DNA of 29,661 nt from Planctomycetota bacterium (lineage in GTDB: Bacteria; Planctomycetota; Planctomycetia; Pirellulales; PLA5). Under the pieces are notes generated by a model, which saw only the letters and a list, made by a program, of their open reading frames with translations, searched no databases and was not told where the DNA came from. The stretch spans positions 1 through 29,661 of the forward strand of contig QEVJ01000070.1 in the NCBI GenBank assembly GCA_003576845.1, read 5' to 3'. Positions 1,572-29,498 of the stretch are shown in pieces. Position 1 is the stretch's first letter. Each line of letters starts with the position of its first letter. A program made the position numbers and the translations under genes.

Positions 1572-1825
1572 CGGAGAACTCCGGACTTCGGGGGTCGGGA
1601 TTCGGGGACTGGAGCGGTGGCACGGGTGGCTTGTCGACCCGTGAGAACCGCCGTTTGACTTGCCATTCTCTCCGCGCCTACGCCGACACACAACTGGCGC
1701 AACGGATCATTCGCATAAACGGGGGTGAATCTTGGAATGCGACGTGGGCTTATCTACACTGGGGTTTGCCGTCGCGCGGCGTTTGCCGTGCGACGCGCCC
1801 ACCCACCATCGCCAAGGATCTCACC

Positions 1826-3127
1826 ATGCTACGAATCCGACCCCATCTGCCCTTTCCCTCTGCGACCTCTGCGCAACCTCTGCGTCTCTGCGTTAAAAAA
1901 CGAACCAGCCTGTTTTTGACCGGAGCCAAGAGCCGTCGAATCCTTGCCACGATCGCACTAGTTGCACTCGCCAATGTCGCCCAAGCCGCCGATCCCGTCT
2001 CAGGCGACAAGATCGAATTCAAGAAAACCGTTCTCGACGTGAAGTTCCGCAGCGAAGGCGTCGCCGTGGCCGACTTCAACAAGGACGGAAAGCTCGACGT
2101 CGCCACCGGCCGCGTGTGGTTCGCTGCGCCGGACTGGAAGATGCACGTCGTCGAGGGCGACGGGAAGGATTTCGACCCGCACGGCTACAGCGGCAGCTTC
2201 TGCAACTTCGCCGACGACTTGAACGGCGATGGTTGGCCGGACTTGATCCTCGTCGACTTTCCCGGCACGCCGACCTATTGGTACGAGAACCCAAAGGAAA
2301 CCGGCAAGCCCTGGACGCGGCACGTGATGGCCAAGGTGTCGAACAACGAAAGCCCCACGTATCTCGATGTGGACGGCGACGGGATACGCGAGCTGGTGAT
2401 GGGAATTGCCCCGGCCGACAACGTCGATGGGCCACAGCGGCAAATGGCGGTCCTTGCGCGGACCAAAGACCCGACGGCGGAATGGGCGGCCCGCGTCGTC
2501 TCGACGAAGGGCGCGCCGGGCACGGTCCGCTATGCCCACGGTCTCGGCGTCGGCGACGTCAACGGCGACGGCCGCAACGACGTACTCGTCAAGGAAGGCT
2601 GGTGGGAAGCGCCGGCCGATAAATCCGCGTCGCCGTGGCAGTTTCATGCGGCCCCGTTCGGGGCGGATTGTGCGCATATATACGTGTACGATTTCGACGG
2701 CGACGGCGACAACGACGTGCTCTCGTCGAGCGCCCATCAAGTCGGCATCTGGTGGCACGAGCAAACGAAAGCCGATGACGGTAAACCCGCGTGGAAGACG
2801 CACGAGATCGAACGCAGCTTTTCGCAAACGCACAGCCTGATGCTCGCCGACATCAACGGCGACAGCCTCCCCGATTTCGTCACGGGCAAACGCTGGTGGG
2901 CCCACGGACCGGGCGGCGACATCGACCCGAACGCGCCGGCCGTGATGTTCTGGTTCGAGCTAAAGCGGGACGGCAGCAAGGCGACGTGGATCCCGCACCA
3001 ATTCGACCACGACAGCGGCGTCGGCACGCAGTTCGAAGTCGTCGACCTCAACGGCGACGGATTGCTCGACGTCGCAACGGCGAACAAGAAGGGCGCGCGG
3101 ATTTTTATCCAGGAACGGAAGTCGTAA
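1826..3127 (+). CDS. Secreted FG-GAP/VCBS-repeat beta-propeller protein with seven Dx[ND]GDG-type repeats.
   Basis: Seven repeats are visible: DFNKDGKLDVATG, DLNGDGWPDLILVD, LDVDGDGIRELVMG, VGDVNGDGRNDVLV, YDFDGDGDNDVLSS, ADINGDSLPDFVTG, VDLNGDGLLDVATA. Start ATG at 1826 sits behind an AAGGA Shine-Dalgarno. A signal peptide reads ...RRILATIALVALANVAQA|ADP. The gene converges on the giant gene with a 19-bp gap. Confidence 0.85.
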   Translation: MLRIRPHLPFPSATSAQPLRLCVKKRTSLFLTGAKSRRILATIALVALANVAQAADPVSGDKIEFKKTVLDVKFRSEGVAVADFNKDGKLDVATGRVWFAAPDWKMHVVEGDGKDFDPHGYSGSFCNFADDLNGDGWPDLILVDFPGTPTYWYENPKETGKPWTRHVMAKVSNNESPTYLDVDGDGIRELVMGIAPADNVDGPQRQMAVLARTKDPTAEWAARVVSTKGAPGTVRYAHGLGVGDVNGDGRNDVLVKEGWWEAPADKSASPWQFHAAPFGADCAHIYVYDFDGDGDNDVLSSSAHQVGIWWHEQTKADDGKPAWKTHEIERSFSQTHSLMLADINGDSLPDFVTGKRWWAHGPGGDIDPNAPAVMFWFELKRDGSKATWIPHQFDHDSGVGTQFEVVDLNGDGLLDVATANKKGARIFIQERKS

Positions 3128-3146: not shown

Positions 3147-6100
3147 CTAACGTCGCCGGAGAGCTCGGGCAGCACGGATCGAAGCCGTCGCTGATTGCTC
3201 GTTAGTGCGCGTGGCTCGTAGCTCCGTTTCGCCAAGCGCGATATCGACCGCGGAAACTACGGAAACGGCCTCACGAACGCGGCGCGACGCACGACGGGCC
3301 GTCAACGTCGATTCGCCAGCGGCATTTCCGTCAATGACCTGTGGGTTGGGCCGTCGAGCCACGACCGCAGCCGCGGCGGATGCGGCCGGCGAACCCGCGC
3401 CCCCACTTTGCCCATAGAGTCGGGCAAACATCGCGACATCGGTTCGATTGACCGTGCCGTCGGCGTTGAGGTCGCCTTGGCTGGGAGTTGCGCCGCTGGC
3501 GATTCCCAGGTGCGCTTGAAGAATCGCCAGGTCGACAAGACCCACGATCGTGTCGCCATTGAAGTCGCCGGGCACGTTGACCGGCGAATCGGGTCCGCCC
3601 GGCGAACCACCGATGGTCGCGCTCGCCCGCCAACCGGTTGCGACGTTCCACTCGCTCTTGGCCGCGTTCAGGTCGACGACGACGAGCGATTTTCCCGGCC
3701 CGTCGGTTTCGGGATACCAGATGTCGTCGTAGGTGAAGTCGTGGAGCGACGCGCCGACGGATTGAGCGAGCACGATCCGCTCTCCGCCGTTGCTGAGGTT
3801 GCCGGAATACTCGCCGGCGATGGCCAGGCCGGTCGTGTCGTAGCGCGTCGCGAAGGCTTGCTGATTGCCGACGACGAGGACGTAGCCGCCGGGCGGCAGC
3901 GACGTGACGGCGCTCGCCGTGAAGTCGAAGGTAATGCCGGTGGTGAATTGCACGCCCGTCAGATCGAGTGTCCGCGTCGTACTGAGGTTGACCAGCTCGA
4001 CGAACTCGAACTCTTCGGCATCCGTGAAGCCCGCGGCGACCTCGGCCGTAGACGGTTCGGCCGGGTGATACATCAGCTCGCCGATCCGCAGAAAATCTTC
4101 GAGCGGCCGATCCGAGTAAGTGCTCGTCACCGTGACCGAATCGGTTCCGATGAGATTGCCCTGGAAGTCGTAGGCCTCGAATTCAAGCGTCTGCGTGCCG
4201 AAGTCGACGGGAATCGTCGCCTGCCACGTGCTCACGCTCGGATAGGTCGCGGCGATCGGGTCGTCCATGCCGGCGACGCGGATTTCGCGGACGTTGATCC
4301 AGGCCGAGCCGCCGAGCGTGACCGTCGGGCCGTCAACGGTGATCTCTTCGCTGCCCGAGGCGACCTCTTCGGCGACGAGCTGCGGCGAGATGAGCATATC
4401 GCTGCTGCCGGAGCCTTGATTGAGGCCGTGAATCGCGAGCACGTTCTCGCCGGCGACGAGGGCCGAGCGAAAGGCGGTGATATCGAACTCCTGAAACTGA
4501 ACGGCGGCGCCGTCGTCGCGGTTGGCCGTCGCTTCGCTGTTCCAGCCGAGCGTCGCCGGGGCATTGGAAGACGCCACGCGCACGCCGTTGAGGAACGCGA
4601 CGAAGCCGTCGTCGTACTTCATCCGCAGCTTGAGCCGGTCGAACGACGCCGGGTCGGCGACGTTAAACGGCACGCGGACGTAGACGCTGTTCGTGTCGTT
4701 CGTGCCGTTGTTGTCCGCGTCGATGGAGGAGAGGATGTCGATGCCGATAAGGTTTTCGTACCCGCCCGTGCGTTCGTAGCCTACTCCCGTCGGTCCGGTC
4801 AGCCAGCCGGCCGTATCGAAACCGGCGCTCATCCACGAATTGCCCAGGGCATCGCTCGTCGGCACGAGCGCGAAGGCCGTCGCCGGTTCGTCAACGAGCG
4901 TCGTCGAGTTGACCGTATCGCCGGTGGACGCGGAGAACGGCACCGCGGGCGGAAGCTGGCTGGCGATGAACGCGCCGCGATTGTCGAGATAGGTGAGCGC
5001 CGGCGCAAAGTTCTGACCCGGCAACAGGCTGCTGTAATGGGTCGTCCAATAGGCCATGTAGGCGCTGTTGAACGTCGTGTTCATCAAATCGTGCAAGTGG
5101 CCGTAGAACAGCCGTTTGTTGGCCGGAATGTCGACGACCTTGCGGATGTTGCTATTGGGGAACGGATCGGCGTTCGTCGGCAAGCCGAATGCGCTCAAAT
5201 CCCAGTCCCACGGAAAGGCCAGGACCTTGCTGTCTTCGGGTCGGACGAACAACCGCAAGTTGTGCGGCAGGCCGCGCCCGTACAGGTCGGAACCGGCGCC
5301 GGCGAGCGATTGCGCCGCGAACACGCGCATCCACTCGTCGACGTCCATCGTGGCCTGCGTGGCGAGGTCGAGCGCCCCGCCGTTTGTGCTGCCCGTAAGG
5401 CTCATCGCCTGGAGGAACTCGATCAGGTCGCTGTAGTCCGACTCGCGGCGAGCGTTCTGCAAGCGGAAATGCCAGCGGTACTTCTCGACGTCTTCGCCCA
5501 AGTATTCCAAGTCGATGTTGTACGATGGATGGCCGTAGCCCGTCGGAACTTTCGGTCCGTCGGGCAGGCCGTTCGACGTGTTGTTCTGGTAATAGATCAA
5601 ATCGAAGTTGTAAACGGGACCGTCGCTGCCGTTGTCGTATTGCTCGTCGAGAAACACGTCGCTGTACTCGCCGAGCATCAGAATCGCGTCGTCGTTGACG
5701 TTCCCCTGGGGCGAGATGAGGTAGACGAGGTCGTCGTACTGCCCGGGCAACCCGCCGCCGGCATTCGCGACCATGTGCTTGATGAGAAACTCGTCCTGGC
5801 CGTTCGGAACGATCGCGCCGCGGCCGGAGCGGTCGATGGCGATGTCTTCGTGGACGCCGCGGAACTTTTGATCGGGGTTGAATTTGACCCGGAAGCTGAC
5901 AAACGCGGTGTTGGGCCGCGCGGCCATGCTGCCCTTGAGCGACACGCCGACGTTGTAGTAGACCTCCTGCTCGTCGTAGACGACCGTTGCCCGCATCTCC
6001 TCGCTGCTCATCACGTTGGTGACGTCGTGGAGCCAGGCGGCGTCGGCCGGGGTCATGATGATGCGGAGACTGTGCTTACCGGCGGCGGGCTGGGCCTGGC

Positions 6101-9100
6101 CGTCTTGCACCTTGTAGAGCGTTCGCGAAGCCGCGCCGGCTGCGGGATACGTCGATGCCGCGCCCAGACCGTCCGTGCCTTCGACGAAAAACTGCACGAT
6201 CGCGCCGGCCGATGCTTGTCCCGGGATGACGCCCATGTAGTGTCCGCCGCCGGCGTGCGTCATCGCGACGCTCGCGAGCGCCCCGCCATTGACCGAGTAG
6301 CGCAGCGTCATGCTTGCGACGCCGTCGGGATCGGCCGCTTGCACCGACACCGTGACCGCTTCGCCCAACGCAGGAACGACGGGCGTGTGCTCGAAGCCTT
6401 CGTAAGTCGGCCCGGCGTTTACGACCGCGCGAGAATTCGGCGCGCCGGGCGTGCCGCCGTGGGCCGGCGAATCGAGGGTAATCCGCCGCGCGAGGCGATT
6501 GAAGTACAGCCGCGTGTTGAACTGATCCGTTCCCGCAAGCCACTTCGCCCGGAACGAGATTTCGTACTCGCGGCCGTTGACGGCGGGCTGGTTGCCGACG
6601 AACGTCGTCTCGGCATGGTTCGAGCGGTCCTGGGTGTACCCGGTGGAGATGAGCTTGAGCACCTTGTTCGTCGGGTCGGTCGGATCGGCGACGACGAAGC
6701 TGCGCTGGTGATTGCCGTTGATTCGCCACGACGCGGGAAGCGCGCCGATCGCGTCGCCTTGGAACGAGCCGTTGATGATTTTCTGCACCGGCGCCGTGCC
6801 GGGCGACTCGATCACCGAAATATCGTCGAGCAAGACTTCGCCGTCGCCGAACAGGCCCATGACGAACTCGTTCCAGCGCGCCGGCGGAAACTCGGCCATC
6901 GCCACGCCGCGGTACGTGAACGTCTTCCACTCGGATTTGCCCGACTCGTCGCTGGCTTGCCAGGCTTCGGCCCGCGAGTTGTCGGCGTCGGGATCGGCAA
7001 GTTCGAGGCTCGAACCCAGGCCGTCGGCGTAGCTCGACCAGCGTCCGCCGTCATAGTAGCGAACCGAGTCGGCGACGTTGTTTCGCGGGTCTTTGAGGAC
7101 AATGCGGTCACTGCTGTTGGAAAGCCCGCCGTTGTAATTGCCGACGATCGCAATGCCGGGATAGATCGCGGCGAGGGCCGCGGCGGCGTTGGATACGACT
7201 AGGTAACCACCTGGGTCGATCGTCGTCCCAGCGGGGAAGTTGAAGTCGATGCCCTCGTCGAGCCGCCAGCCGGTCAGATCCACCGGCGAATTGCCGCGAT
7301 TGTAGAGTTCGATCCATTCCTCGCCGACTTCCATGTATTCGGTCGCCGGGCTGGTTTCGACGACCGTGGCCAGCGCCATGCCGAACGCGACGTCGGAGTC
7401 GGCGGCGCCTGCGGCGGCGTTGATCTCGATCTCGTCGATGGCGATATCGTCGTCCGAAACCTTGATGCGCAGGCCCGTGGCTTGGATAGGGCTGCCGTCT
7501 CGCGCGAGCGTGTAGCGGTGGCGCAGGTACGGCGTGAAGCCGGGTCCCGCGGCGCCGTAGGTCACCGTGCCGATGGTCTGCCACCCGGTCGCGGCGTTGC
7601 CGGTTTCGGCGGTTCCCGTGCCGGGCGCGGCGACGTTCGTGATCTGGATCGTGTACGTGCCGATCGAACGATCGCCGCACGTTCCGCCGCAGGCATCGGT
7701 AACCGTATTGCCGTTGTCGCGTCCCCACGCGATGCTCGAAAAACTTAGCGTGCCGCCGAAGTTCAGCCCGATGTAAGGATTCGGGTCTCCGACCGGGAAG
7801 TTGGCAAGCCAACTGTTCGAGTTGCCGTACTTGCCGTCGCGGATATTGGCAATCAAGTGAATGCCGCCGCCGTATTGGCTGCTGCCGAACGCCGTGACGC
7901 TGGGATTGAGCGCATCGTTAGCGGGAGCGAGAGCCGGATTCGCGGGGCTGTAAAAATCGCCGTCGCTACCGTCCCAGGCAATTTGAAAGTTCGGTTGCGG
8001 CGCAATCTGCGGACCGCCGCCGGTCGGCGCCGTCGCTTGATGGACCTCGACGGCGAGAACGTTCGTTCCGTTCACCAATCCCGTCGCCGGCACGATAATC
8101 GGTCCGGCAAGTCCGGCGTCGTCGACGATGGTGAGCGCCGAGGTGCCATAGTCGATGTCACCGGCGGGCATGTTGTGGCGATAGATTTCGACGCCGTTGA
8201 GATAGAACACCGCGCCGTCGTCGACGACCGGTGAAAGGCTCAACTTGGCGTTCGCCAGCTCGCCGGCATAATCGAACGTTTTGCGGAAGTAATACGTCTC
8301 GCGCCCCGCTGCAAGCTCGGTATTCTTGGGCGCGGGGAGCGTCCCCGCTTCGCTGTGGAACAAGCCCGCGCCGCTCGGCCACGCCGAGTCGTCGTAGGCC
8401 GCCGCACGCCAGGCGACGCCGCGGTCCGTGCCCGAGTCATCGTACTTCCACGTCGCATCGAGCGGAAACACCGGCGTTTCGTCGAACTCGGCCGGGCGCG
8501 GCTGAATCGGCCGGTGATGGTACATGATCTCGTTGATGACGATTTCGTCGTGCAGGGAAACGGTGTTTGCCGCGCCGGGGGTGAGGGCTTCGACGTAATG
8601 CCAATCGCCGGTTCCGCTCGGCGATCGGCCGCGGGCGGCCGTCTTGACGACGATCGCATCCAAGAGGACCGTCTTGCCGGGCGTGTACAAGAAAACTTTG
8701 TCGCCGTCGGCGGCGCCGAAACCGAGTTGTGCCGTGGTGAGCGATAGATACGCTCCCGGCGCGAGCGACGACGCCGGCAGCACGTAGTCCGCCGCGGTCG
8801 CTCCATCGCGGGTAATCACCACGCCGGTCAGATCGAGCGTCGTGTCGCCGCGGTTGTACAGCTCGACGGCGATATTCTCGCCAGCCGCGGAAACCTCGTT
8901 GAGGGCGAGGTTCGGCAAATCCGCGCCGGTTTCGATAATCGTTTCGGCGACCTTGAATTCCGCGGCAAACGTGACGTCGTTGCTGCCGATCGTGGCCTGG
9001 TGTACTTCGACGGCAATTGCATTCTCGCCGGGCTGCAACGCGGCCGCAGATACCGTGAACGGTCCGGCATAGCCGGCTACGCCGACGGCGAGCGACGCCG

Positions 9101-10118
9101 GCGTCGAATAGGTGATGACCGTCGGCGCTCCGGGCATATTGCGGCGGAAAATTTCCTGCCCGTTGAGGTAGTAAACCGCCCCGTCGTCGACGATCGGGCG
9201 AATGACGAGGTTCGCCTGGGAAGGATCGCCCGTGTATTCGAACGTCGTACGGAAGTAATACGTCATGCGGCCGAGCGTGAGCAGCGTCGTCTTCGGCTCG
9301 GGATAGGTTTGGGCATTGTTGGCATAAAACAGGGCATTGCCGACCGACCACGGGTCCGTGCCGCAGGTATCGTCGGCGGTCGGATCGTATCCGCCGGGTC
9401 CGGCGGTCCAATTGGCCGCCGGTTCGGCCGTTTGGCAGTAATGCCAACTGGCATTCACGGGCACGACGGTGGTCTCGACGACCTGCGGCGCGTCGGTGGG
9501 AAAGTTTCGCGCACCCGGCGTGCCGCCGATTTCGCGGCTCGTCGACCAGTTGGCGAACTCCGGCGTGCCGAGGTTCGGTTCGAGCTTGGCGAGCGAAACG
9601 CCACCGCCGTCCGCGCCGCTCGGCCAGTCGCCGTCGTCGCCGTATTCAAGCTCGTCCATGGTTCGGCCACCGTTGCTCACGAGCCGGATCGTTTCCCCGC
9701 CGTTGCCGAGCGTGCCCGTGTAGGGACCAAGCGCGCCGGCGAATCCGGAGGCGGCTTGCAGGTCGGTCGGCGACGCCGCAACGACGAGATAGTCGCCGCC
9801 GCCGAGCCGCGTACCCGGCGCAAACGTGTAGTTGACGCCGCCGGTGATGCGCCAGCCCGATAGGTCCATATCGACGGACTGCTGGTTGTAGAGCTCGACC
9901 CATTCGAGCGCGTCGTTGTTGCCGGCCGGGTGATACATCACCTCGTTGAACACGACGGTGCTGTCGAGGACGCGGCGGTCTTCGAGGGTTTCGAGCGACA
10001 GACGCCGGGTCCGACGGCGGGCGGTCGATTCAGCAGCGACGCCGCGCCGCGATTCGCGCGACGAAGCAGGCGAATTGGGTAGGGAACGGGCGGCGCGAAC
10101 GGGACGCATGAACGGCAT
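3147..10118 (-). CDS. Giant (2323 aa) multidomain surface/secreted-type protein: lamin-tail domains (LTD) x4, CotH kinase-like core, three beta-sandwich-like modules, one YGNSNSW module and a C-terminal dockerin.
   Basis: One continuous ORF runs on the minus strand. Start is chosen at ATG 10116-10118 (MPFMRPV), which has GGAGG 7 nt upstream. The track start at 10199 is a TTG. The N-terminus RRLSLETLEDRRVLD has no hydrophobic signal peptide. LTD-like segments lie at about 9504-9956, 8556-8918, 6975-7343 and 3600-4094 (motifs NEVMYHP...EWVELYN...DLSGW). The CotH-like core at about 5010-6053 reads YYNVGVSLKGSMAARPNTAFVSFRVKF...WDWDLSAFG. The dockerin at 3414-3572 carries GDFNGDTIVGLVDLAIL and GDLNADGTVNRTDVAMF. 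Confidence 0.85.
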   Translation of the reverse strand: MPFMRPVRAARSLPNSPASSRESRRGVAAESTARRRTRRLSLETLEDRRVLDSTVVFNEVMYHPAGNNDALEWVELYNQQSVDMDLSGWRITGGVNYTFAPGTRLGGGDYLVVAASPTDLQAASGFAGALGPYTGTLGNGGETIRLVSNGGRTMDELEYGDDGDWPSGADGGGVSLAKLEPNLGTPEFANWSTSREIGGTPGARNFPTDAPQVVETTVVPVNASWHYCQTAEPAANWTAGPGGYDPTADDTCGTDPWSVGNALFYANNAQTYPEPKTTLLTLGRMTYYFRTTFEYTGDPSQANLVIRPIVDDGAVYYLNGQEIFRRNMPGAPTVITYSTPASLAVGVAGYAGPFTVSAAALQPGENAIAVEVHQATIGSNDVTFAAEFKVAETIIETGADLPNLALNEVSAAGENIAVELYNRGDTTLDLTGVVITRDGATAADYVLPASSLAPGAYLSLTTAQLGFGAADGDKVFLYTPGKTVLLDAIVVKTAARGRSPSGTGDWHYVEALTPGAANTVSLHDEIVINEIMYHHRPIQPRPAEFDETPVFPLDATWKYDDSGTDRGVAWRAAAYDDSAWPSGAGLFHSEAGTLPAPKNTELAAGRETYYFRKTFDYAGELANAKLSLSPVVDDGAVFYLNGVEIYRHNMPAGDIDYGTSALTIVDDAGLAGPIIVPATGLVNGTNVLAVEVHQATAPTGGGPQIAPQPNFQIAWDGSDGDFYSPANPALAPANDALNPSVTAFGSSQYGGGIHLIANIRDGKYGNSNSWLANFPVGDPNPYIGLNFGGTLSFSSIAWGRDNGNTVTDACGGTCGDRSIGTYTIQITNVAAPGTGTAETGNAATGWQTIGTVTYGAAGPGFTPYLRHRYTLARDGSPIQATGLRIKVSDDDIAIDEIEINAAAGAADSDVAFGMALATVVETSPATEYMEVGEEWIELYNRGNSPVDLTGWRLDEGIDFNFPAGTTIDPGGYLVVSNAAAALAAIYPGIAIVGNYNGGLSNSSDRIVLKDPRNNVADSVRYYDGGRWSSYADGLGSSLELADPDADNSRAEAWQASDESGKSEWKTFTYRGVAMAEFPPARWNEFVMGLFGDGEVLLDDISVIESPGTAPVQKIINGSFQGDAIGALPASWRINGNHQRSFVVADPTDPTNKVLKLISTGYTQDRSNHAETTFVGNQPAVNGREYEISFRAKWLAGTDQFNTRLYFNRLARRITLDSPAHGGTPGAPNSRAVVNAGPTYEGFEHTPVVPALGEAVTVSVQAADPDGVASMTLRYSVNGGALASVAMTHAGGGHYMGVIPGQASAGAIVQFFVEGTDGLGAASTYPAAGAASRTLYKVQDGQAQPAAGKHSLRIIMTPADAAWLHDVTNVMSSEEMRATVVYDEQEVYYNVGVSLKGSMAARPNTAFVSFRVKFNPDQKFRGVHEDIAIDRSGRGAIVPNGQDEFLIKHMVANAGGGLPGQYDDLVYLISPQGNVNDDAILMLGEYSDVFLDEQYDNGSDGPVYNFDLIYYQNNTSNGLPDGPKVPTGYGHPSYNIDLEYLGEDVEKYRWHFRLQNARRESDYSDLIEFLQAMSLTGSTNGGALDLATQATMDVDEWMRVFAAQSLAGAGSDLYGRGLPHNLRLFVRPEDSKVLAFPWDWDLSAFGLPTNADPFPNSNIRKVVDIPANKRLFYGHLHDLMNTTFNSAYMAYWTTHYSSLLPGQNFAPALTYLDNRGAFIASQLPPAVPFSASTGDTVNSTTLVDEPATAFALVPTSDALGNSWMSAGFDTAGWLTGPTGVGYERTGGYENLIGIDILSSIDADNNGTNDTNSVYVRVPFNVADPASFDRLKLRMKYDDGFVAFLNGVRVASSNAPATLGWNSEATANRDDGAAVQFQEFDITAFRSALVAGENVLAIHGLNQGSGSSDMLISPQLVAEEVASGSEEITVDGPTVTLGGSAWINVREIRVAGMDDPIAATYPSVSTWQATIPVDFGTQTLEFEAYDFQGNLIGTDSVTVTSTYSDRPLEDFLRIGELMYHPAEPSTAEVAAGFTDAEEFEFVELVNLSTTRTLDLTGVQFTTGITFDFTASAVTSLPPGGYVLVVGNQQAFATRYDTTGLAIAGEYSGNLSNGGERIVLAQSVGASLHDFTYDDIWYPETDGPGKSLVVVDLNAAKSEWNVATGWRASATIGGSPGGPDSPVNVPGDFNGDTIVGLVDLAILQAHLGIASGATPSQGDLNADGTVNRTDVAMFARLYGQSGGAGSPAASAAAAVVARRPNPQVIDGNAAGESTLTARRASRRVREAVSVVSAVDIALGETELRATRTNEQSATASIRAARALRRR
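3414..3572 (-). other. Dockerin-like double Ca-binding repeat at the C-terminal end of the giant protein.
   Basis: PGDFNGDTIVGLVDLAILQAHLG...GDLNADGTVNRTDVAMFARLYG matches the dockerin type-I repeat pattern (DxNxDGxvnxxDxxxl). Confidence 0.65.
5010..6053 (-). other. CotH (spore-coat protein H-like atypical kinase) domain inside the giant protein.
   Basis: The CotH-like opening LKGSMAARPNTAFVSFRVKF and the later WDWDLSAFG and HLHDLMNTTFN segments are present. LTD+CotH is an established architecture for this family. The domain boundaries are approximate. Confidence 0.6.
7419..7877 (-). other. YGNSNSW module (unknown function) in the giant protein, homologous to the two modules of the adjacent PEP-CTERM protein.
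   Basis: Giant protein: IRDGKYGNSNSWLANF...NPYIGLNFGGTLSFSSIAWGRDNGN...ACGGTCGDRSIGTYTIQIT...GWQTIGTVTYG...YLRHRYTL...ATGLRIKVSD..IAIDEIEI. PEP-CTERM repeat 2: LNDGSYGNSNSWIGG...FAGVLLDGLFYVDSIAWGRDNGN...ACGGQCDDRFAGTYTIQYT...GWADVGTVNYT...YLRHEFSV...ASGIRLLVPS...AIDEIEIY. Confidence 0.7.
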
Positions 10119-10232
10119 GAAACGGCCTCCGCGCGACAAAACGACCCACGCCGAAAGCGCCGGCCACGAAAGCCGGACCGTCGGAGGTCGCTGGCGCAAG
10201 GGGAAGTGGTCGGGGAAAAGAGGAAAACGAGA

Positions 10233-10271
10233 ACTGTATACAGTTGACAGTATACTGAGACAGGTTATACT
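10233..10271. promoter_or_regulatory. AT-rich divergent control region with overlapping face-to-face sigma70-like promoters and GTATAC-core palindromes.
   Basis: Plus strand reads TTGACA (10244-10249), N16, TATACT (10266-10271), pointing at the PEP-CTERM gene. Minus strand reads TTGCAA, N16, TATACT, pointing at the giant gene. Palindromes are ACTGTATACAGT (10233-10244) and CAGTATACTG (10248-10257). This is an AT-rich island in GC-rich DNA. Confidence 0.4.
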
Positions 10272-10393
10272 TGCAATCAGTTTTGTAGCGATTTTAGCGA
10301 AATATCGACGCTCTCTTGATTACTTTAACCTGAACGTCCGCCATCGTGTTGCTCGTGAACTGAACCGTCTCGAGATCTCTTCTGGAGGGACCA

Positions 10394-11845
10394 ATGAGTC
10401 GCTTGCCTCTCGCTCTTCGCACCTTCGCCCGCCGTTGCGGCGGCGCGGTGTTCGCCCTGGCCGCAGTGGCTGCCGCGGCCGTCACGCCTCAAACCGCGCA
10501 CGCCGTCGTCACGCTCTCCGGCGGCGGACTCGTCCTCGCCGAACAAGGCGGAACCTTCGCGCCGAACAATGTCGCGGGAGCATCGTTGGGCGCGATTCCG
10601 TTTTCGAGCAGCGACCTCGGTCCGCAACTCGGCATTCCCTTTCATATCGCCGCAAACCTCAACGACGAAACCTACGGCAACTCGAATAGCTGGATCGGCG
10701 GCGACGTGAATCCCTATCCCGCGCCGTTTGCCGGCGTCGCGCTCGACGGTTCCTTCACGCTGCAAAGCATCGCCTTCGGCCGCGACAACCTCGGCGCGTT
10801 CGGCGATCGGACCTTGGGCCTCTACACATTGCAGTACACGACCGCCGGGACGGTTGACGCCAACACACCGGACGCTTCCTGGACGACGATCGGCACGCTC
10901 AACTACGTTTCGCCCGGCGGCACGAACTTCAGCAACCCCGCGCTGCGCCACCGCTACAATTTCGATCCTGTTGCGGGCGTCACCGGCGTGAGATTGCTCG
11001 TCCCAAGCACGGGTATCGGCGGCGGAACCGACATCGACGAGATCGAACTGTACGAAACGGCTGGCGTCATCGTCCCGCCGCCGCCGGTCGTCATCCTGAC
11101 GCCTGCCGCCGGCCACGGTATCGGGTACAACGGCAACGACGGCGATCATTTCGATCCGGCGCCTCCGCCGGGCGGGGCCGTCGTACCGAACAACCTGGCG
11201 CTGGCCAGCAACGGCGGCGTGCCGATTTCGAGCAGCGACCTCGGTCCCGAACTTGGCATCCCGTTTCACGTGGCGGGAAATCTGAACGACGGTTCCTACG
11301 GCAACTCGAATAGCTGGATCGGCGGAAATCTGCCCGGCGGCGTTCCCGCGCCGTTCGCCGGCGTGCTGCTGGATGGTCTGTTCTATGTCGACAGCATTGC
11401 CTGGGGTCGCGACAACGGCAACGGCGCGTTTGACGACAGTTTTGCTGGCTCCGACGCTTGCGGCGGTCAGTGCGACGACCGATTCGCCGGCACCTACACG
11501 ATCCAGTACACGCAACTGACAACGGCCGACGCCAGCACACCGTTCACGGGCGACCCGACGACCGGTTGGGCCGACGTGGGCACGGTCAATTACACCGCGG
11601 TCAACGATGCCGGTCCCGGCGGCGAGTTCACCGGCTATTTGCGCCACGAATTCTCCGTCCAAGCCGGCGGCGGCCCGGTGCTCGCCTCGGGCATTCGGTT
11701 GCTCGTGCCCAGCACGGGGCTGGGCGGCGGCACGGCCATCGACGAGATCGAGATTTACGGCTCGGCCGTTCCCGAACCGTCGACTTACGCGCTGGTCGCT
11801 ACGGCGATTTTCGGCCTGGCCGCGATTCGTCGCCGCCGCCGATAA
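10394..11845 (+). CDS. PEP-CTERM sorting-domain protein with an N-terminal signal peptide and two tandem YGNSNSW modules.
   Basis: ATG at 10394 has GGAGG 5 nt upstream. Signal peptide reads MSRLPLALRTFARRCGGAVFALAAVAAAAVTPQTAHA. Module copies lie at about 10556-11060 and 11165-11767. The C-terminus VPEPSTYALVATAIFGLAAIRRRRR (11768-11842) is a textbook PEP-CTERM (VPEP motif, TM helix, Arg cluster). Confidence 0.85.
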   Translation: MSRLPLALRTFARRCGGAVFALAAVAAAAVTPQTAHAVVTLSGGGLVLAEQGGTFAPNNVAGASLGAIPFSSSDLGPQLGIPFHIAANLNDETYGNSNSWIGGDVNPYPAPFAGVALDGSFTLQSIAFGRDNLGAFGDRTLGLYTLQYTTAGTVDANTPDASWTTIGTLNYVSPGGTNFSNPALRHRYNFDPVAGVTGVRLLVPSTGIGGGTDIDEIELYETAGVIVPPPPVVILTPAAGHGIGYNGNDGDHFDPAPPPGGAVVPNNLALASNGGVPISSSDLGPELGIPFHVAGNLNDGSYGNSNSWIGGNLPGGVPAPFAGVLLDGLFYVDSIAWGRDNGNGAFDDSFAGSDACGGQCDDRFAGTYTIQYTQLTTADASTPFTGDPTTGWADVGTVNYTAVNDAGPGGEFTGYLRHEFSVQAGGGPVLASGIRLLVPSTGLGGGTAIDEIEIYGSAVPEPSTYALVATAIFGLAAIRRRRR

Positions 11846-15077: not shown

Positions 15078-15170
15078 CGCTGGCACGGCGTGCAGTGGGC
15101 GTTAGATGTTGTGGTCGGCGCTTTCCGTCGGGCCCGGCGGCGTTTGGCTGCCAAACCTCGCCGCCGCGCA

Positions 15171-16373
15171 TCAATCGTCGCTGACCCCGAGACGCACGCG
15201 GATGGGCGTCGCTTTTCCGCCGCGGATGACGCTGACTTCGACCGTTTCGCCCGGCTTGCGGCTTTCGATGAGCGATTGAAACTGCGACGCCGATTTCACC
15301 GGCTTGCCGTCGACCGCGACGATCGTGTCGGCCTGCGAGCGGTCCAGGCGCTGCCACTCTTCGATGAACGCCCCGCGCTGGCGGCGTTCGCGGACGATGC
15401 GATACCCGCGCAGGCCCGCTTGCGCCGCGGGGCCGTTCGGCGTCGCGGCGACGATGACCAGTCCGTGATCGGCCTCCAAGACGCGGGCGATGCCGATGTC
15501 GGCGCGAATCACGCGGCCGTGCTCGATCAACTGCGGCAGGATCGGCGCAATCGTGGTCGAACCGATCGCGAACCCGACGCCGGCGCTTTGGCCTGTCTTG
15601 CTGGCGATGGCCGTGTTCATGCCGATGACGCGGCCGCGCGTGTCGAGCAGCGGCCCGCCGGAGTTGCCGGGATTGATCGAGGCGTCGATCTGGATGATCG
15701 ATTTCATGATGTGACGGTTCCGAGTCGGCAGCGAGCGGTTCAAACTGGCAATGATCCCGGCGGTGAGCGTTCGTTCGAGGCCAAAGGGATTGCCGATGGC
15801 GAAGACGCGCTGCCCGACCCGAAGCTGCGACGAATCGCCGAACGTGACGGGAAACAGCGACTCGGCCGGGGCGTCGATTTTGAGCAGGGCCATGTCGGTC
15901 GACGCATCGCGGCCGACAACCTGGGCGTCGTAAGCCTTGCCGTCGAAGAGCGTAACGCGGATTTCGTCGGCCGCTTCGACGACGTGGTAGTTGGTCAAGA
16001 TGTGGCCGTGCTTGTCGATGACGAAACCCGAACCGGCGCCTTCCTCGGCTTGGGCCTCCATGCCGAAGAACGTATCCTCGCGCTGTGCCCGCGTGGTAAT
16101 GTTGGCGACGCTGCGATTCACTCGCTCGTAGACGTCGATGTTTACCCGCTCCTCCGCGGACAGTTCGTCGAGCCGGTTTCCGGGCACGATGGCGGGTCCG
16201 GCGGCGGGGCGTTCGCTGGCGGGGCGATTGGCCGGCCGTCGCCCATCGAGCGGCGGGGCTGGCGGCGGCTCTTGAGCCAACGACTCGGCTTCGCCGGGCA
16301 GCCGTTCCAACAACTCGGCACCCACGGCGCCAACGGCAACACAGATCACACACAGAATGAGGTTTCGCAGCAT
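15171..16373 (-). CDS. htrA: HtrA/DegP-family periplasmic serine protease (S1C) with one PDZ domain and an N-terminal membrane anchor.
   Basis: Catalytic triad context is HVV, DMALLK and GNSGGPLL. The PDZ-like C-terminus reads IGIARVLEADHGLVI...GDTIVAVDGKPV. The anchor reads MLRNLILCVICVAVGAVGA. Start ATG is revcomp of 16371-16373. Confidence 0.9.
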   Translation of the reverse strand: MLRNLILCVICVAVGAVGAELLERLPGEAESLAQEPPPAPPLDGRRPANRPASERPAAGPAIVPGNRLDELSAEERVNIDVYERVNRSVANITTRAQREDTFFGMEAQAEEGAGSGFVIDKHGHILTNYHVVEAADEIRVTLFDGKAYDAQVVGRDASTDMALLKIDAPAESLFPVTFGDSSQLRVGQRVFAIGNPFGLERTLTAGIIASLNRSLPTRNRHIMKSIIQIDASINPGNSGGPLLDTRGRVIGMNTAIASKTGQSAGVGFAIGSTTIAPILPQLIEHGRVIRADIGIARVLEADHGLVIVAATPNGPAAQAGLRGYRIVRERRQRGAFIEEWQRLDRSQADTIVAVDGKPVKSASQFQSLIESRKPGETVEVSVIRGGKATPIRVRLGVSDD

Positions 16374-16643
16374 GGCGTCACCGCTTGAGGTTCGGGTCGC
16401 GGCGGGGGGAATCCCGCCTTCCCTCCGGGATTTTAACCCATGTTACGCACGCAGGCGAAGGCGAGTTCGCCGGGGACGGACGAGCGGCACCGGGTTCTTC
16501 GGTAGATTCCGCGGCCAATGGTACGCTCCGGGCGGACCGTTGGTTATGATGCCGGGAACCGTGGAAGATGCAGACAGCGGACCATTGCGACTTCCCCTAC
16601 GAATCCCGCGGGAATCTTGCGGCTTAACATCGCGGAGGCAACT

Positions 16644-18065
16644 ATGTTCGGCGACACCTTGGCCGGCGGTCTCGATCGGCGTTCTTTTCTGCGGCAGGCA
16701 GTCGGCGGCGCGGCGGCGTTCGGTTTCGGAGCGTCCGCATTGAACTTCGCGTGGCCGGCGCGGCTTTTCGCCCAAGAGCCGGGCGAGCGACCGAAGCGGT
16801 CCGACGGCGTGACGGTCGTCAACCCCCGCGGCCGCGTGCCGCTGAGCTTCATCATCGACGACTCGACGTGCCTGGTGAATCTCAACCGCTTCGCCATGCC
16901 GCAGTTCGCCGTCGCGACGGGCAATCGCAAGACATACAACGACGCCTGGCGGAAATGGCCGGCCGAGATTCCCGACGACTTCGTCCGCAAGTTCGGCAAC
17001 TGGTGCGGCGAGCACGGCGTGAAGGGAAAATACAGCGTCGTGCCCTATCCGGCGTGCGTCGGCCGGCTCGATCGCGAACTGCCGGGCTGGACCGACGCCG
17101 AAGTGAAGGCGAGCATCGACCTCGTCCGCACGCTGATGCTGCCCGGTTGGGACATCCATCCCGAAATGATTACGCACACCTGGGCGATCGACACGAAGAC
17201 GGGCCATCCGTTTCCCGAAAAATCGATGAACTTCGCCGAGAACTGGGGCTGGTCGGTCGGCAAGTCGGCGGACGAGTTGACCGATTACTTCGTTTATGCG
17301 CTCAACATCCTGAAGAACGTCGGCCTGCCGTGCGAAGGCGTGACGACGCCGGGCGGATTCGGCGGCCGCTCGCTCGTTTCGCTCTCGAAGGCCACGCTCG
17401 ATTCGTGCCGCGACGTGTTCAAGACCGAAATCCCGCACTATTTCCGCCATCTTTATGACCGCGGCGACGAAAGCGTGGCCCCGCGCGTCGAGTATGCCGC
17501 GGACTTGGGCGGCGACGATCCCAAGTGCGTCGTGTCGATCATCGGCTGCACGGGCGATTGGACCGGCGGCTGGGACTGCTCCGATCGTGGCTTCGTCGAC
17601 AAGTTCATCACGCCGAACCTCAAGAGCGGCCGCATGGTCGAGGTGATCGAGCGCGGCGAACCGGCCTGCATTGTCTGTCACTGGACGGGCATCTACTTCA
17701 ACGGCGAAGAGGTCGGCTTCAAGGTGTTTCAAGAAGCCGTGCGGCGCTTGCACGCGCGGTACGATCACCTCTTATGGATGAAGCTTAGCGAGATCGCCCG
17801 CTACTGGGCGGCGAAGGAACTGACGACGATCGCCAAGGTCGACAACCGCATCGAGTTTGCGGCGCCGTTCGCCTGTCCCGCGTTTACGGTGAAGTTCGCG
17901 GCCGACGAGCGTGCGCGGCCGAACGTCGGCAACGGCGACAAGACGATCTTGCTCAAGGAGGTCGATACGATGCTCGCGCTCGAACCCGGCACGTTCGTTC
18001 GGCAGGGCAAAGACGTGGTTTGCTGCTTCAACTTGATGAAGGGGCGTTCGCTGGTGACGTGGTAA
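16644..18065 (+). CDS. Tat-signal exported hypothetical protein (473 aa) of unknown function.
   Basis: ATG at 16644 has GGAGG 5 nt upstream. A twin-arginine motif DRRSFLRQAVGGAAAFGFG...AQEP is present. I recognise no family with confidence. A faint carbohydrate-esterase-like flavour (SFIIDDS) is not enough for a call. Confidence 0.65.
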   Translation: MFGDTLAGGLDRRSFLRQAVGGAAAFGFGASALNFAWPARLFAQEPGERPKRSDGVTVVNPRGRVPLSFIIDDSTCLVNLNRFAMPQFAVATGNRKTYNDAWRKWPAEIPDDFVRKFGNWCGEHGVKGKYSVVPYPACVGRLDRELPGWTDAEVKASIDLVRTLMLPGWDIHPEMITHTWAIDTKTGHPFPEKSMNFAENWGWSVGKSADELTDYFVYALNILKNVGLPCEGVTTPGGFGGRSLVSLSKATLDSCRDVFKTEIPHYFRHLYDRGDESVAPRVEYAADLGGDDPKCVVSIIGCTGDWTGGWDCSDRGFVDKFITPNLKSGRMVEVIERGEPACIVCHWTGIYFNGEEVGFKVFQEAVRRLHARYDHLLWMKLSEIARYWAAKELTTIAKVDNRIEFAAPFACPAFTVKFAADERARPNVGNGDKTILLKEVDTMLALEPGTFVRQGKDVVCCFNLMKGRSLVTW

Positions 18066-19980: not shown

Positions 19981-20220
19981 ATGAAACAATTCGTGGACGC
20001 GGTATATGAGGACGGCATCTTTCGACCGGTGCTGCCGGTCGAGCTTCCGCCGGGCGAACGCGTGCGCGTCGAGATCGACGTGAAGCCCAAGGTGGACGTC
20101 GAGAAAATGCTCTCCGAATTCCAAAAAGTGTATGAAGGATTTACGCCAGCGGAAATCGAAGAACTGGAGAAAGTAATCCTCGACCGAAGCAACTTTTCGC
20201 GGCGGGAGCTCGACCTATGA
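19981..20220 (+). CDS. DUF104-type antitoxin (partner of a PIN toxin).
   Basis: MKQFVDAVYEDGIFRPVLPVELPPGERVRVEI matches the AF2212/DUF104 antitoxin N-terminal pattern. GGAGG lies 5 nt upstream. The stop overlaps the next gene start (ATGA at 20217-20220). Confidence 0.65.
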   Translation: MKQFVDAVYEDGIFRPVLPVELPPGERVRVEIDVKPKVDVEKMLSEFQKVYEGFTPAEIEELEKVILDRSNFSRRELDL

Positions 20221-20630
20221 GCCGGTCGCGCGTGCTGATCGACACCGATGTGCTCTCGGCTATCCAGCGCAGCGATCCCCAGGCGATGTCACGCCTCGCC
20301 GAGTACATTTCACTCTTTGGTCGGGCAACGTGGTCCGTAATCACAAGCTATGAAGTATTGCGTGGACTTCGCTGGAAACGCGCGACGGGACAAGAACTGG
20401 CGTTTAGGCGGATTTGCGATGGCCATGAAGTCTTGCCTCTGACCGCGGAAATCGCCGACGTTGCGGCGCAACTCCATGCTGACTGCAAGTCCCGAGGAAT
20501 TGCGGCTGGCGACGCCGATACCTTGATCGCAGCAACCGCGCTCGTGTACGGCATGAGCGTTGCCACGGGAAACGTGCGCCATTTTCGCGAGTTCTCGAGC
20601 CTTCACTTGGAAAACTGGCTCGTGCATTAG
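20217..20630 (+). CDS. vapC: PIN-domain toxin (VapC-like ribonuclease).
   Basis: Acidic PIN residues are seen in VLIDTDVL, SYEVLRG and AAGDADTLIAATA. Size is 137 aa. The gene is translationally coupled to the upstream antitoxin. Confidence 0.8.
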   Translation: MSRSRVLIDTDVLSAIQRSDPQAMSRLAEYISLFGRATWSVITSYEVLRGLRWKRATGQELAFRRICDGHEVLPLTAEIADVAAQLHADCKSRGIAAGDADTLIAATALVYGMSVATGNVRHFREFSSLHLENWLVH

Positions 20631-26509: not shown

Positions 26510-26978
26510 GATGCTAGTCTCCCGTTGGGCTTGCGAATCGAGAAGCGTTTCGCCCTCGGAGTCGATTGCCGCCAAAGCGTCCGTGCGACGCGCGGGCCAT
26601 TGTCGCGGGCGGCGGGGATTGCAGTCAAGGGAGCGTAGGACGCAAACGGTTCCGAGAAAAGGACACCGTCGGATTGCTGCATGCTACCGCAACGCGCGAA
26701 GTCGAGAGGCGACAAATAGCAACAACACTAGCGCGCATGCGCCGCTGGAAAGATCGGCGACATATCGCGAACGCTGCGTCCAGCCAAGGATTCGTGCAAT
26801 GGCCGGAAGCCAGGCCCCGACCAACAGCAAAACGTATGGCCAGTACCGAAGCAGGCTTCCCGGCTTGGTGCTGCGGTGGTTCACGCGCGAATTGTAGTCA
26901 GGGGCGGAGTTTCGAGTATTATGACGACTCGTAGTCTAATGTTATTGCTCGAATTCGTCGACTAGCGCCATCCTCGCC

Positions 26979-28232
26979 ATGCCCCTCAAAACCGCCAAGC
27001 CACGCCGTGCGCCCGCGCCGATATCTGCCAGTTCCTTGCCGCACGTCGAGCCGGACCTCGACCGCGCGATTGCGCTCGTGATGGAGATGATGGCGATACC
27101 GGGCAAGAGCGGCGAAGAGGCGGCGATTGCGGAGTTTGTCGTCGCTCGGCTGCGCGAAGCGGGATTGCCGGAGGACGCGATTCGGTTCGACGCGGCGCAC
27201 AAGCGATCGCCGCTCCGTGGCGGGACGGGGAACCTGATCGTCAAGCTGCCCGGAACGATCGCGGGACCACGGCGGTTGCTCTCCGCCCATCTCGACACGG
27301 TGCCGATTTGCGTTGGGTGCCGCCCGGTGCGGAAGGGCGACCTGGTTTCGTCGGCCGATCCCAGCACCGGCTTGGGAGGCGACAACCGCGCGGGCGCGGC
27401 CGTGCTCCTCGTCGCGGCGATCGAGATTCTCTCGCGGTCGCTGCCGCATCCGCCGCTCGCGTTCGTTTGGTTCGTGCAGGAAGAAGTCGGGCTGCAAGGC
27501 TCGCACTATCTGCAAACCGGGCTCTTGGGCAAGCCGAAACTCGCGTTCAACTTCGACGGCGGCTCGCCGGAAAAGCTTACGCTCGGCGCGACCGGCGGGT
27601 ATCGCATGGATATCGAAATCCGCGGCCTGGCGAGCCACGCCGGCGGCGCCCCGGAGCAAGGCATCAGCGCGATCGCGATTGCGTCGCTGGCGATTGCCGA
27701 GCTGCACCGCGAAGGCTGGCACGGACTGGTGCAAAAGACCGACACCCGCGGCCGCGCGCTGCAAGGGACGAGCAACGTCGGCGTGATTCGCGGCGGCGAC
27801 GCGACGAACGTCGTGACCGACCGCGTGCTCGTGCGGGCGGAAGCGCGAAGCCACGATCCCAAGTTTCGCGGCCAGATCATCAAGCGAATCGAAACGGCGT
27901 TTCGTGACGCGGCCAAGACGGTAAAGAACGTCGGCGGCAAGTGCGGCAGCGTCGAAATCAAGGGCCGACTCGATTACGAATCGTTTCGGCTCTCGGCCAA
28001 GGAATCTTGCGTCGTCGCGGCCGAGCAGGCCGTTCGCGAGACCGGCGGCGAACCGATCCACGCCATCTCGAACGGCGGACTCGACGCCAACTGGCTCACG
28101 AGCCACGGCATCCCCACGGTCACGCTCGGCTGCGGACAAAAGAACATCCACACGACTGCCGAGCAGCTCGACTTGAAGGAGTTCCTGCGAGCGTGCCGGA
28201 TCGGATTGCGACTCGCAACAGCGACCGAGTGA
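26979..28232 (+). CDS. M20-family metallopeptidase (PepT/ArgE/DapE-like).
   Basis: SAHLDTV, GGDNRAG, FVQEEVGLQGS (catalytic Glu-Glu) and HAGGAPEQG motifs are present. Length is 417 aa. No signal peptide is seen. Confidence 0.85.
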   Translation: MPLKTAKPRRAPAPISASSLPHVEPDLDRAIALVMEMMAIPGKSGEEAAIAEFVVARLREAGLPEDAIRFDAAHKRSPLRGGTGNLIVKLPGTIAGPRRLLSAHLDTVPICVGCRPVRKGDLVSSADPSTGLGGDNRAGAAVLLVAAIEILSRSLPHPPLAFVWFVQEEVGLQGSHYLQTGLLGKPKLAFNFDGGSPEKLTLGATGGYRMDIEIRGLASHAGGAPEQGISAIAIASLAIAELHREGWHGLVQKTDTRGRALQGTSNVGVIRGGDATNVVTDRVLVRAEARSHDPKFRGQIIKRIETAFRDAAKTVKNVGGKCGSVEIKGRLDYESFRLSAKESCVVAAEQAVRETGGEPIHAISNGGLDANWLTSHGIPTVTLGCGQKNIHTTAEQLDLKEFLRACRIGLRLATATE

Positions 28233-28251
28233 TATAGCCCCAAGCCATTTA

Positions 28252-28275
28252 GCCCCGGGTGAAAACACCCGGGGC
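28252..28275. terminator. Strong GC hairpin between the convergent M20-peptidase and sugE genes (putative bidirectional terminator).
   Basis: GCCCCGGGTG-aaaa-CACCCGGGGC forms a perfect 10-bp stem with a 4-nt loop. No clear U-tract follows on either side. Confidence 0.4.
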
Positions 28276-28336
28276 AATGCCCGCGCCATTCTCGCACTCG
28301 CGATTCTCGAAGGACGTTCTCGCCCGCTGCACGCCC

Positions 28337-28654
28337 TCAATGCGAAAGCTTCAGCGTCGCCACGCCCGCGACGATTAGCCCCACGCCGAGGAATCGGCCC
28401 AAAGTCGCCGCATCGCCGAACAACCACACGCCAAGGAGAAACGTTCCCGCCGCGCCGATGCCGGTCCAAACGGCATAAGCCGTGCCCATGGGAATCTCGC
28501 GCTGTGCCAGCCAGAGGAACACGCCGCTGGCCGCCATCGAAGCAATGGCGGCCGCGATGCCGACGAGGCGATGGTCGGGACTCTGGCCATACTTGAGGCC
28601 CAGCGGCCAGCCAATTTCGAACATCCCAGCCAACAACAGGTAGAACCAACTCAT
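28337..28654 (-). CDS. sugE: SMR-family small multidrug/guanidinium exporter (SugE/Gdx).
   Basis: MSWFYLLLAGMFEIGWPLGLKYG...GTAYAVWTGIGAAGT...LKLSH aligns along its full length with E. coli SugE. It is 105 aa with 4 TM helices. Confidence 0.9.
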   Translation of the reverse strand: MSWFYLLLAGMFEIGWPLGLKYGQSPDHRLVGIAAAIASMAASGVFLWLAQREIPMGTAYAVWTGIGAAGTFLLGVWLFGDAATLGRFLGVGLIVAGVATLKLSH

Positions 28655-28700
28655 CGCGTGCTCTTGTAGTTCGGGTTGGGCGGCGGAGGCCAGCGTCCGG

Positions 28701-28730
28701 TTGACGCTCCGCGTCGGGGCGACGTAAAAT
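28701..28730 (+). promoter_or_regulatory. Sigma70-like promoter for the Rrf2 regulator gene.
   Basis: TTGACG (28701-28706), 18 nt, TAAAAT (28725-28730). The -10 element overlaps the palindromic operator. Confidence 0.4.
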
Positions 28731-29491: not shown

Positions 29492-29498
29492 CTTTACG

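Follow-up and report, generated by a model that had tools for sequence, protein, structure and literature searches.

What brings together a small protein with an envelope-sorting signal and a giant extracellular-type protein, when their genes lie back to back and both carry the same sequence module? The question is raised by a divergent gene pair at positions 3147 to 11845 of contig QEVJ01000070.1 from a Planctomycetota bacterium (Pirellulales; assembly GCA_003576845.1); the window analysed here is the whole stretch of 29,661 nucleotides. One gene encodes a protein of 2323 amino acids (aa), here called the giant, with lamin-tail domains (LTD), a CotH kinase-like region and a dockerin, and the other a 483-aa PEP-CTERM protein. 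An earlier note, made from the sequence alone, had described a private module of about 150 aa, unplaceable in any named family, once in the giant and twice in the PEP-CTERM protein, and had proposed a two-part surface system in which the smaller protein plays a cohesin-like role. Judged by predicted fold and sequence links, the module is a divergent, lineage-specific subfamily of the F5/8 type C (discoidin)/CBM32 galactose-binding-like superfamily, with no Pfam or NCBIfam model of its own. The window is one case of a cluster that recurs in the Planctomycetes–Verrucomicrobia–Chlamydiae (PVC) superphylum, in which one or more exported module proteins adjoin, or are fused into, an exported LTD–CotH giant.

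The module and the two proteins that carry it

The pair is made up as follows, with scores from a hidden Markov model (HMM) of the module family where given.

3147–10118, minus strand: gene of the giant, 2323 aa from its ATG, from open reading frame (ORF) and translation
9966–10022, minus strand: N-terminal Arg-rich segment and LETLEDRRVL (aa 33–51), directly preceding DSTVVFNE of the first LTD
7413–8000, minus strand: module of the giant (aa 707–902), 242 bits; leader WDGSDGD, Cys loop ACGGTCGDR
7053–7343, minus strand: best-scoring of the four LTD stretches (aa 926–1022), PF00932
4749–6011, minus strand: CotH kinase-like region (aa 1370–1790), PF08757 at 27.8 bits (cut-off 23.8)
3426–3572, minus strand: dockerin type I repeat pair (aa 2183–2231), PF00404 (Dockerin_1) at 31 bits (cut-off 22.9)
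10394–11845, plus strand: gene of the PEP-CTERM protein, 483 aa, diverging from the giant gene
10394–10504, plus strand: probable Sec signal peptide (aa 1–37), by inspection, with a basic n-region, a AVFALAAVAAAAV core and AHA/VV
10526–11059, plus strand: module copy 1 (aa 45–222), 207 bits, short type, lacking the WDGNDGD leader and the Cys loop
11099–11770, plus strand: module copy 2 (aa 236–459), full type, with the leader and an ACGGQCDDR loop
11765–11842, plus strand: PEP-CTERM sorting signal (VPEP, transmembrane helix, RRRRR), tail sequence VPEPSTYALVATAIFGLAAIRRRRR followed by the stop

When the PEP-CTERM protein was compared with the giant by blastp, both of its copies matched one and the same giant segment, copy 2 with an E of 1.6e-43 (39.5% identity over 258 aa) and copy 1 with an E of 2e-20, so the threefold occurrence of the module is real and far beyond chance. 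The core lies where the earlier note had placed it, although the full length by the family HMM is 180–225 aa rather than about 150. Over aligned positions, copies 1 and 2 are nearest each other (57.5% identity), and copy 2 is nearer to the giant's module (45.4%) than copy 1 is (39.8%), as had been stated. The best match of copy 2 is at 69% (locus L001), that of copy 1 at 59%, to the first of the two modules in a PEP-CTERM protein of L010, and those of the giant's module at 59–60%, to modules of verrucomicrobial multi-module (array) proteins. Every copy is thus closer to a module of another genome than to its two companions here, which makes the three old paralogs; these relatives and the identities of 40–58% rule out recent local duplication or gene conversion among them.

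In scans of the window's proteins and of copy 2 alone, no Pfam or NCBIfam model matches the module, the F5/8 type C model PF00754 included. Sub-threshold matches to PF00754 occur in 8 of 67 family members (best E 1.5e-4), and a search of PDB sequences with a profile of the family alignment (A1) gave lactadherin as its best match, weakly (E 0.21), at the GNxNxW motif. The HMM from alignment A1 also matches regions of neighbouring proteins at 33–64 bits; in six of these proteins Pfam labels the matched regions F5_F8_type_C, and in three the gathering score of 28.2 bits is reached. The framework motifs of discoidin domains are present in the module (NLA..SS..NDGxYGNxxSW, a central Trp, an Arg-containing strand and a terminal IDEIEvYG), and in the fold comparison its predicted structure, a distorted beta-sandwich jelly roll, can be superimposed on solved discoidin/CBM32 domains. 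What sets the family apart is its WDGNDGD leader strand, its LRH motif and an insert of the form GRDNGN...(CGGxC)DR. Across all 67 sequences, the three window copies included, ten positions do not vary, and the conserved polar motifs are YGN, RDN, DR and RH. The module can thus be assigned, on fold and sequence links, to the discoidin/CBM32 type, and the earlier view that it could not be placed no longer stands. The leader, WDGNDGD(H/F)F at 11099–11170 and 7930–8000, resembles calcium-binding loops of the DxDxDG type and is absent from the short-type copy 1.

The PEP-CTERM protein consists of a probable signal peptide, module copy 1, a Pro-rich linker, module copy 2 and the sorting tail. The tail scores above the cut-offs of both PF07589 (23.2 bits; cut-off 20.7) and TIGR02595 (24.6 bits; cut-off 16), in agreement with the sorting signal read earlier from the sequence. 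A predicted structure of the mature two-module protein, based on an alignment of 27 two-module homologs, has a mean predicted local distance difference test score (pLDDT) of 86 and a predicted template modelling score (pTM) of 0.73; in it the Pro-rich linker and the leader are predicted as structured strands.

The giant begins with an Arg-rich/LExLExR motif, followed by an LTD, a beta-sandwich, an LTD, a second beta-sandwich, the discoidin-like module, an LTD, a conserved region plus CotH, a beta-sandwich, an LTD, the dockerin and a tail. Its ORF is open up to 10199, where an alternative TTG start is possible. Pfam finds four LTD stretches (whole-protein E 1.7e-61), and LTD, CotH and dockerin are all recovered, as the earlier note had them. 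A phmmer search of PDB sequences with the CotH region gave no match and a profile of orthologs was needed: that of 12 orthologous regions matches Bacillus cereus CotH (5jd9) with an E of 9.6e-7, which places the region in the CotH family. HN and WDxD, invariant in the 12 orthologs, line up with the HN and WDYD motifs of 5jd9; the window has WDWD. In Bacillus CotH, D228 and D251 are required for activity (PMC7821199). By the numbering from the 5jd9 alignment, B. subtilis D251 corresponds to the first Asp of WDYD and D228 to the residue five places ahead of the Asn. At this latter position the giant family has Arg or Gly in place of Asp; a near-invariant Asp is found 9–10 residues upstream of the Asn. 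Kinase activity is uncertain because the catalytic Asp is off its canonical position.

When the N-termini of orthologs were compared, the window giant showed no hydrophobic signal peptide, as had been noticed before, and the verrucomicrobial orthologs showed a classical Sec signal peptide ending right before DSVVVFNE (A/DSVVVFNE). At the same position, just before the first LTD, planctomycete giants including that of the window have an Arg/Lys-rich stretch and then RLxxExLExRxVLDSTVVFNE. This start is found in the window, L001, L006, L020, L022, L068, L083, L086–L091, L096 and L114, and further in L118, L127, L128, L137, L138 and L146; a 5-module protein of L068 has a similar start motif, ESLEDRRLLA. 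The RLxxExLExRxVL motif looks like a lineage-specific export signal that takes the place of the signal peptide. With Sec signal peptides in the orthologs and the motif at the same position, the window giant is very probably exported, by a planctomycete route that we infer from the motif.

Spread of the module and conservation of the pairing

A database search with copy 2 returned 114 protein clusters, mostly of 250–345 aa; several of them have PEP-CTERM tails, and some bear the label Verrucomicrobiales. An exhaustive profile search, covering 1.84 billion representatives, gave 1,473 proteins (clusters at 50% identity) with an E limit of 1e-3, and with the stricter limits of 1e-10 and 1e-30 it gave 886 and 418, each protein having from 1 to 11 module stretches; a scan of species-representative genomes gave at least 454 coding stretches. 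The module is therefore not private to this locus. Of the 76 loci from the scan, nearly all belong to Verrucomicrobiota (Verrucomicrobiales, Limisphaerales, Chthoniobacteraceae) or Planctomycetota (Planctomycetales, Pirellulaceae, Phycisphaeraceae), the remainder being one from Lentisphaerae and a few from contigs that are probably mis-binned. Across the window and related loci there are 251 strong module copies, in three contexts.

Context 1: PEP-CTERM proteins with one or two modules
Context 2: multi-module proteins (4–6 copies) with a different C-terminal domain
Context 3: modules embedded in LTD–CotH giants

A PEP-CTERM tail is present in 39 of 67 family members. Where it is missing from module proteins and giants of Verrucomicrobia, the C-terminus is made up of a TSP3 repeat and then a domain of some 90 aa that finishes ...(F/Y)(F/Y)R(I/V)...; this ending was seen in L003 (10793–11812), L004, L005, L007, L009, L016, L017, L027 and L041. 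Pfam does not recognise this domain, which may be an alternative sorting or anchoring domain.

Conservation of the pairing was followed by searching all module loci by tblastn with pieces of the window giant. Within the fetched flanks, 32 of 75 loci from the genome scan have a colinear ortholog, in the order LTD, sandwich, LTD, sandwich, LTD, conserved region, CotH, LTD, with 40–57% identity in the region before CotH and 35–47% in CotH. Where full 10-kb flanks were available, a giant ortholog is present at 12 of 25 loci. The divergent arrangement of a giant and a two-module PEP-CTERM protein recurs in five planctomycete loci (L001, L006, L020, L025, L052) and one metagenome locus (L083); in L001, whose neighbouring genes are listed, the neighbours differ from those of the window and the pair is kept. 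Verrucomicrobia have a different order, all on one strand and found in one complete 6.3-Mb genome among others: directly upstream of the giant stand two module genes, the first for a PEP-CTERM protein and the second for a protein with the TSP3 repeat and C-terminal domain. The module lies inside the giant in the window, L001, L016, L017, L027, L041, L057, L058, L060, L064, L068, L072, L077 and L078, and only in genes adjoining the giant in L003, L005–L009, L011, L012 and L160. This pattern of fusion and fission, with the module now in the giant and now in its neighbours, is classical evidence of functional linkage.

The reverse was also examined: a profile of the CotH region from module-associated giants was scanned against metagenome contigs and gave 80 giant-centred loci of planctomycete and verrucomicrobial types. 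The module occurs in just four of them, in neighbouring genes at L083 and L126 and inside the giant at L147 and L154; it is found at 3 of the 40 giant loci with at least 3 kb upstream and 3 of the 23 with at least 3 kb on both sides. The association is strongly asymmetric, since about half of the module loci are tied to a giant and most giants are without the module. The pairing is thus a lineage-specific elaboration of a widespread LTD–CotH protein and not its defining feature.

New here are a discoidin subfamily without an existing model and its recurrent, partly fused association with LTD–CotH giants in PVC bacteria; the fold, the sorting signal and the domains of the giant are of kinds already known. 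Our literature search found no description of a PEP-CTERM/CotH pairing, in line with the earlier note; the single paper in which both terms occur is unrelated. PVC bacteria have very many giant extracellular proteins without an assigned role, and bacterial CotH proteins have hardly been characterised except in spore-formers. A discoidin/CBM32-like subfamily of about 1,500 clusters, repeatedly beside or fused into LTD–CotH giants, gives a concrete handle on the role of these giants, in the form of partner proteins, a probable localisation and a candidate regulator. For a number of PEP-CTERM proteins it also makes plain what the passenger domain is.

A proposed shared ligand and the alternatives

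It seems to us about an even chance (roughly 0.5) that the modules are ligand-binding discoidin/CBM32-like units which co-localise the envelope PEP-CTERM protein and the secreted CotH-family giant. They would bind a ligand that is most likely a glycan, either the cell's own exopolysaccharide or an environmental polysaccharide. The PEP-CTERM protein would be exported by Sec, presumably processed by an exosortase, and would display its two modules on the envelope. Through its single module the giant would bring its CotH kinase-like region and its LTDs to that ligand or matrix as well. What unites the two proteins would then be the shared ligand, and not cohesin–dockerin pairing or an obligate contact between modules. 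Arrays that reach 11 copies, and the large number of module proteins with no giant nearby, fit avidity-type binding of a ligand better than a dedicated docking module.

Two observations on neighbouring genes bear on the ligand. In Verrucomicrobia a sensor kinase of the Reg_prop/Y_Y_Y/HisKA_3 type lies directly upstream of the module genes in seven loci, at the following positions.

L003: 5714–9861
L160: 5716–9860
L013: 6193–9741
L048: 5728–9210
L039: 2434–6141
L043: 2–3544
L049: 1052–4645

A GerE-type response regulator is listed beside the kinase in L003 and L160. The N-terminal region of the sensor kinases is matched by the module HMM (33–64 bits), and in the one kinase scanned, that of L043, Pfam calls this region F5_F8_type_C below threshold; sensor kinase and module effectors may therefore recognise the same ligand. 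In addition, a single-module PEP-CTERM homolog (P0008) in L162 (2782–9853) stands in a polysaccharide biosynthesis locus, beside genes for a glycosyltransferase, WecG, a polysaccharide pyruvyl-transferase, an epimerase and radical-SAM proteins. The kinase domain and the polysaccharide-gene neighbours are hints that favour a logic centred on a ligand, probably a glycan.

Several points weigh against this reading. The pairing is not obligate, there being no giant at 13 of the 25 fully flanked module loci and no module at all but 4 of the 80 giant-centred ones, and the chance rate of module–giant adjacency is an estimate, not a measured rate. Besides discoidin/CBM32 domains, the fold matches include domains of protein contact (IFT25, APC10/DOC, SUN–KASH) and the lipid-binding C2 domains of factors V and VIII. 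The pTM of 0.73 at pLDDT 86 and the structured linker and leader in the two-module model hint that the tandem modules take a fixed mutual arrangement in cis, so direct contacts between modules may occur. None of the 22 window ORFs scanned is an exosortase. Of the two-part surface system proposed in the earlier note, what stands is a linked unit, with the divergent pair in six other loci and with fusion and fission; an obligate partnership does not.

One rival reading is direct tethering, in which the envelope PEP-CTERM protein holds the giant through contacts between modules or, like a cohesin, through its dockerin. We regard this as unlikely. No cohesin was found on the partner, either by Pfam or among the fold matches listed. 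The dockerin-bearing C-terminal 164 aa of the giant (aa 2160–2323) has no tblastn match at E≤1e-5 in the 79 loci L001–L079, a 'faint' Dockerin_1 being listed in L001. With the dockerin not conserved along with the pairing and no cohesin present, the cohesin-like role envisaged earlier fails.

It is about equally improbable that there is no functional coupling at all, the arrangement being the product of duplication and shuffling of a mobile extracellular domain cassette and the cluster spreading by descent or horizontal transfer. The module is indeed promiscuous in PVC genomes, where it occurs in PEP-CTERM proteins, arrays and giants, with related domains in kinases and in the PSCyt proteins described below; the module of the window giant is nearest to verrucomicrobial array modules and not to its own neighbours; and about half of the module loci have no giant. 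On the other hand, adjacency persists across two phyla despite module identities of 40–60% and despite rearranged gene order and orientation, it survives a change of surrounding genes in L001, and selection for co-function would account more readily for fusions that arose repeatedly and independently at different places in the giant. A discoidin-type domain scattered over many unrelated proteins would have undone the proposed pair; the module is discoidin-like, which goes part of the way, but its subfamily is lineage-restricted and keeps the pairing.

Least likely of the alternatives is a kinase–substrate cluster, in which the giant is a secreted CotH-family kinase and the adjoining module proteins its dedicated substrates, as in Bacillus cotB/cotH/cotG. 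CotH membership by Pfam and the 5jd9 profile match, the invariant Asn and metal-binding Asp (HN...WDxD) of the 12 orthologs, the clustering of kinase and substrate genes in Bacillus (PMC7821199) and the conserved adjacency of module and giant would all agree with it, yet Arg or Gly replaces the Asp at the canonical D228 position, the conserved Asp standing 9–10 residues upstream, the module proteins do not have the Ser/Lys/Arg-rich repeats of CotB and CotG, and with module neighbours at so few giants the substrates would usually have to be something else.

A wider picture joins the kinase and ligand ideas, and we hold it to be unlikely. In a subset of Planctomycetota and Verrucomicrobiota, the LTD–CotH giant and its discoidin-module neighbours would form a surface-patterning system in which a lectin-like PEP-CTERM protein recruits, or is phosphorylated by, an extracellular CotH-family kinase. 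Such a system would be a Gram-negative, non-sporulating counterpart of Bacillus CotH/CotG/CotB, in Verrucomicrobia maybe controlled by the sensor kinase with the same type of domain.

Intergenic region, neighbouring genes and known systems

Between the two genes of the window lie the following features, of which the two single sites are consensus matches only.

10119–10393, no strand: divergent intergenic region, 275 bp, with an AT-rich core
10236–10276, no strand: overlapping back-to-back sigma70-like sites (promoter scan, 2 found against 0.2 expected)
10244–10271, plus strand: TTGACA-16-TATACT
10276–10249, minus strand: TTGCAA-16-TATACT

Within 10236–10276 there are also two 10-bp palindromes, CTGTATACAG and CAGTATACTG, 4 bp apart. 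Sites and palindromes together are compatible with shared divergent control and may mark a putative operator for the pair. A by-eye comparison of the intergenic regions of six divergent pairs showed no convincingly shared operator.

The other genes of the window are unrelated in function (SPFH, FG-GAP repeat, DapA, WD40, dehydroquinate synthase, PIN, DUF6807, beta-eliminating lyase, serpin, asparaginase and an Rrf2 regulator). These and the further features of the window include the following.

1631–3127, plus strand: FG-GAP repeat protein, 498 aa, extracellular-type, converging on the 3' end of the giant gene
15090–16388, 16518–18065 and 26919–28925: ORFs of 432, 515 and 668 aa, none with a Pfam match
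20217–20630, plus strand: PIN-domain gene, 137 aa
23316–25415, minus strand: ORF of 699 aa, with a full serpin domain at aa 320–693 (E 4e-99), preceded by an extension of about 320 aa without a match to any family
28032–28101, minus strand: tRNA-Ser called by ARAGORN inside the 26919–28925 ORF, not supported by Rfam
29419–29492, plus strand: tRNA-Gly(CCC), on which ARAGORN and Rfam agree

In other loci, PSCyt1/PSCyt2/PSD1 proteins are encoded downstream of the cluster (L001 11186–14062, L003 16579–19494, L160 16597–19506 and others), followed in several by a DUF1501 gene. These PSCyt proteins have a central F5/8C-like domain that the module HMM matches weakly, and PSCyt/DUF1501 adjacency is seen at 18 of 75 loci. 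Since PVC genomes contain the PSCyt/DUF1501 gene pair in great numbers, the adjacency is possibly background. Counts of neighbouring histidine kinases and PSCyt proteins made with full-length queries were dropped, because the queries share the discoidin-like domain and a contig with a single ORF (L015) scored positive; the kinase and PSCyt neighbours reported here were taken from gene tables and from the positions of weakly matching ORFs instead.

Among the known systems closest to the cluster is Bacillus cotB/cotH/cotG, where the CotH kinase phosphorylates the products of neighbouring genes and patterns a surface layer (PMC7821199). In both, a CotH domain gene lies beside genes of surface-layer proteins, with the Asn and metal-binding Asp motifs kept. 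Here, however, the bacterium is a PVC member that does not sporulate, CotH is one part of an exported protein of 2323 aa rich in LTDs, its catalytic Asp is off the canonical spacing, the neighbours are discoidin-like and not Ser-rich repeat proteins, and most related giants are without such neighbours.

With the cellulosomal cohesin–dockerin system the locus shares one dockerin type I repeat pair on the giant, and the cellulosomal components of Clostridium thermocellum include dockerin-bearing CotH/LTD proteins. The PEP-CTERM partner, in contrast, carries no cohesin, its predicted fold being that of discoidin/CBM32. As a PEP-CTERM/exosortase protein (TIGR02595; compare the floc-associated PepA, NF033554) it has the usual PEP motif, transmembrane helix and Arg cluster, with a probable N-terminal signal peptide, but it matches the NCBIfam PEP-CTERM passenger families over the tail only, its passenger domain matching none, and some members of the module family carry a different C-terminal domain in place of the tail.

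The module itself is closest to F5/8 type C/CBM32 domains (PF00754), which it resembles in predicted fold. It differs from them in its length of 180–225 aa as against about 130–150 aa, in the added N-terminal leader strand (WDGNDGD), the GRDNGN...(CGGxC)DR insert and the invariant YGN and LRH, and in a distribution that is essentially confined to the PVC superphylum.

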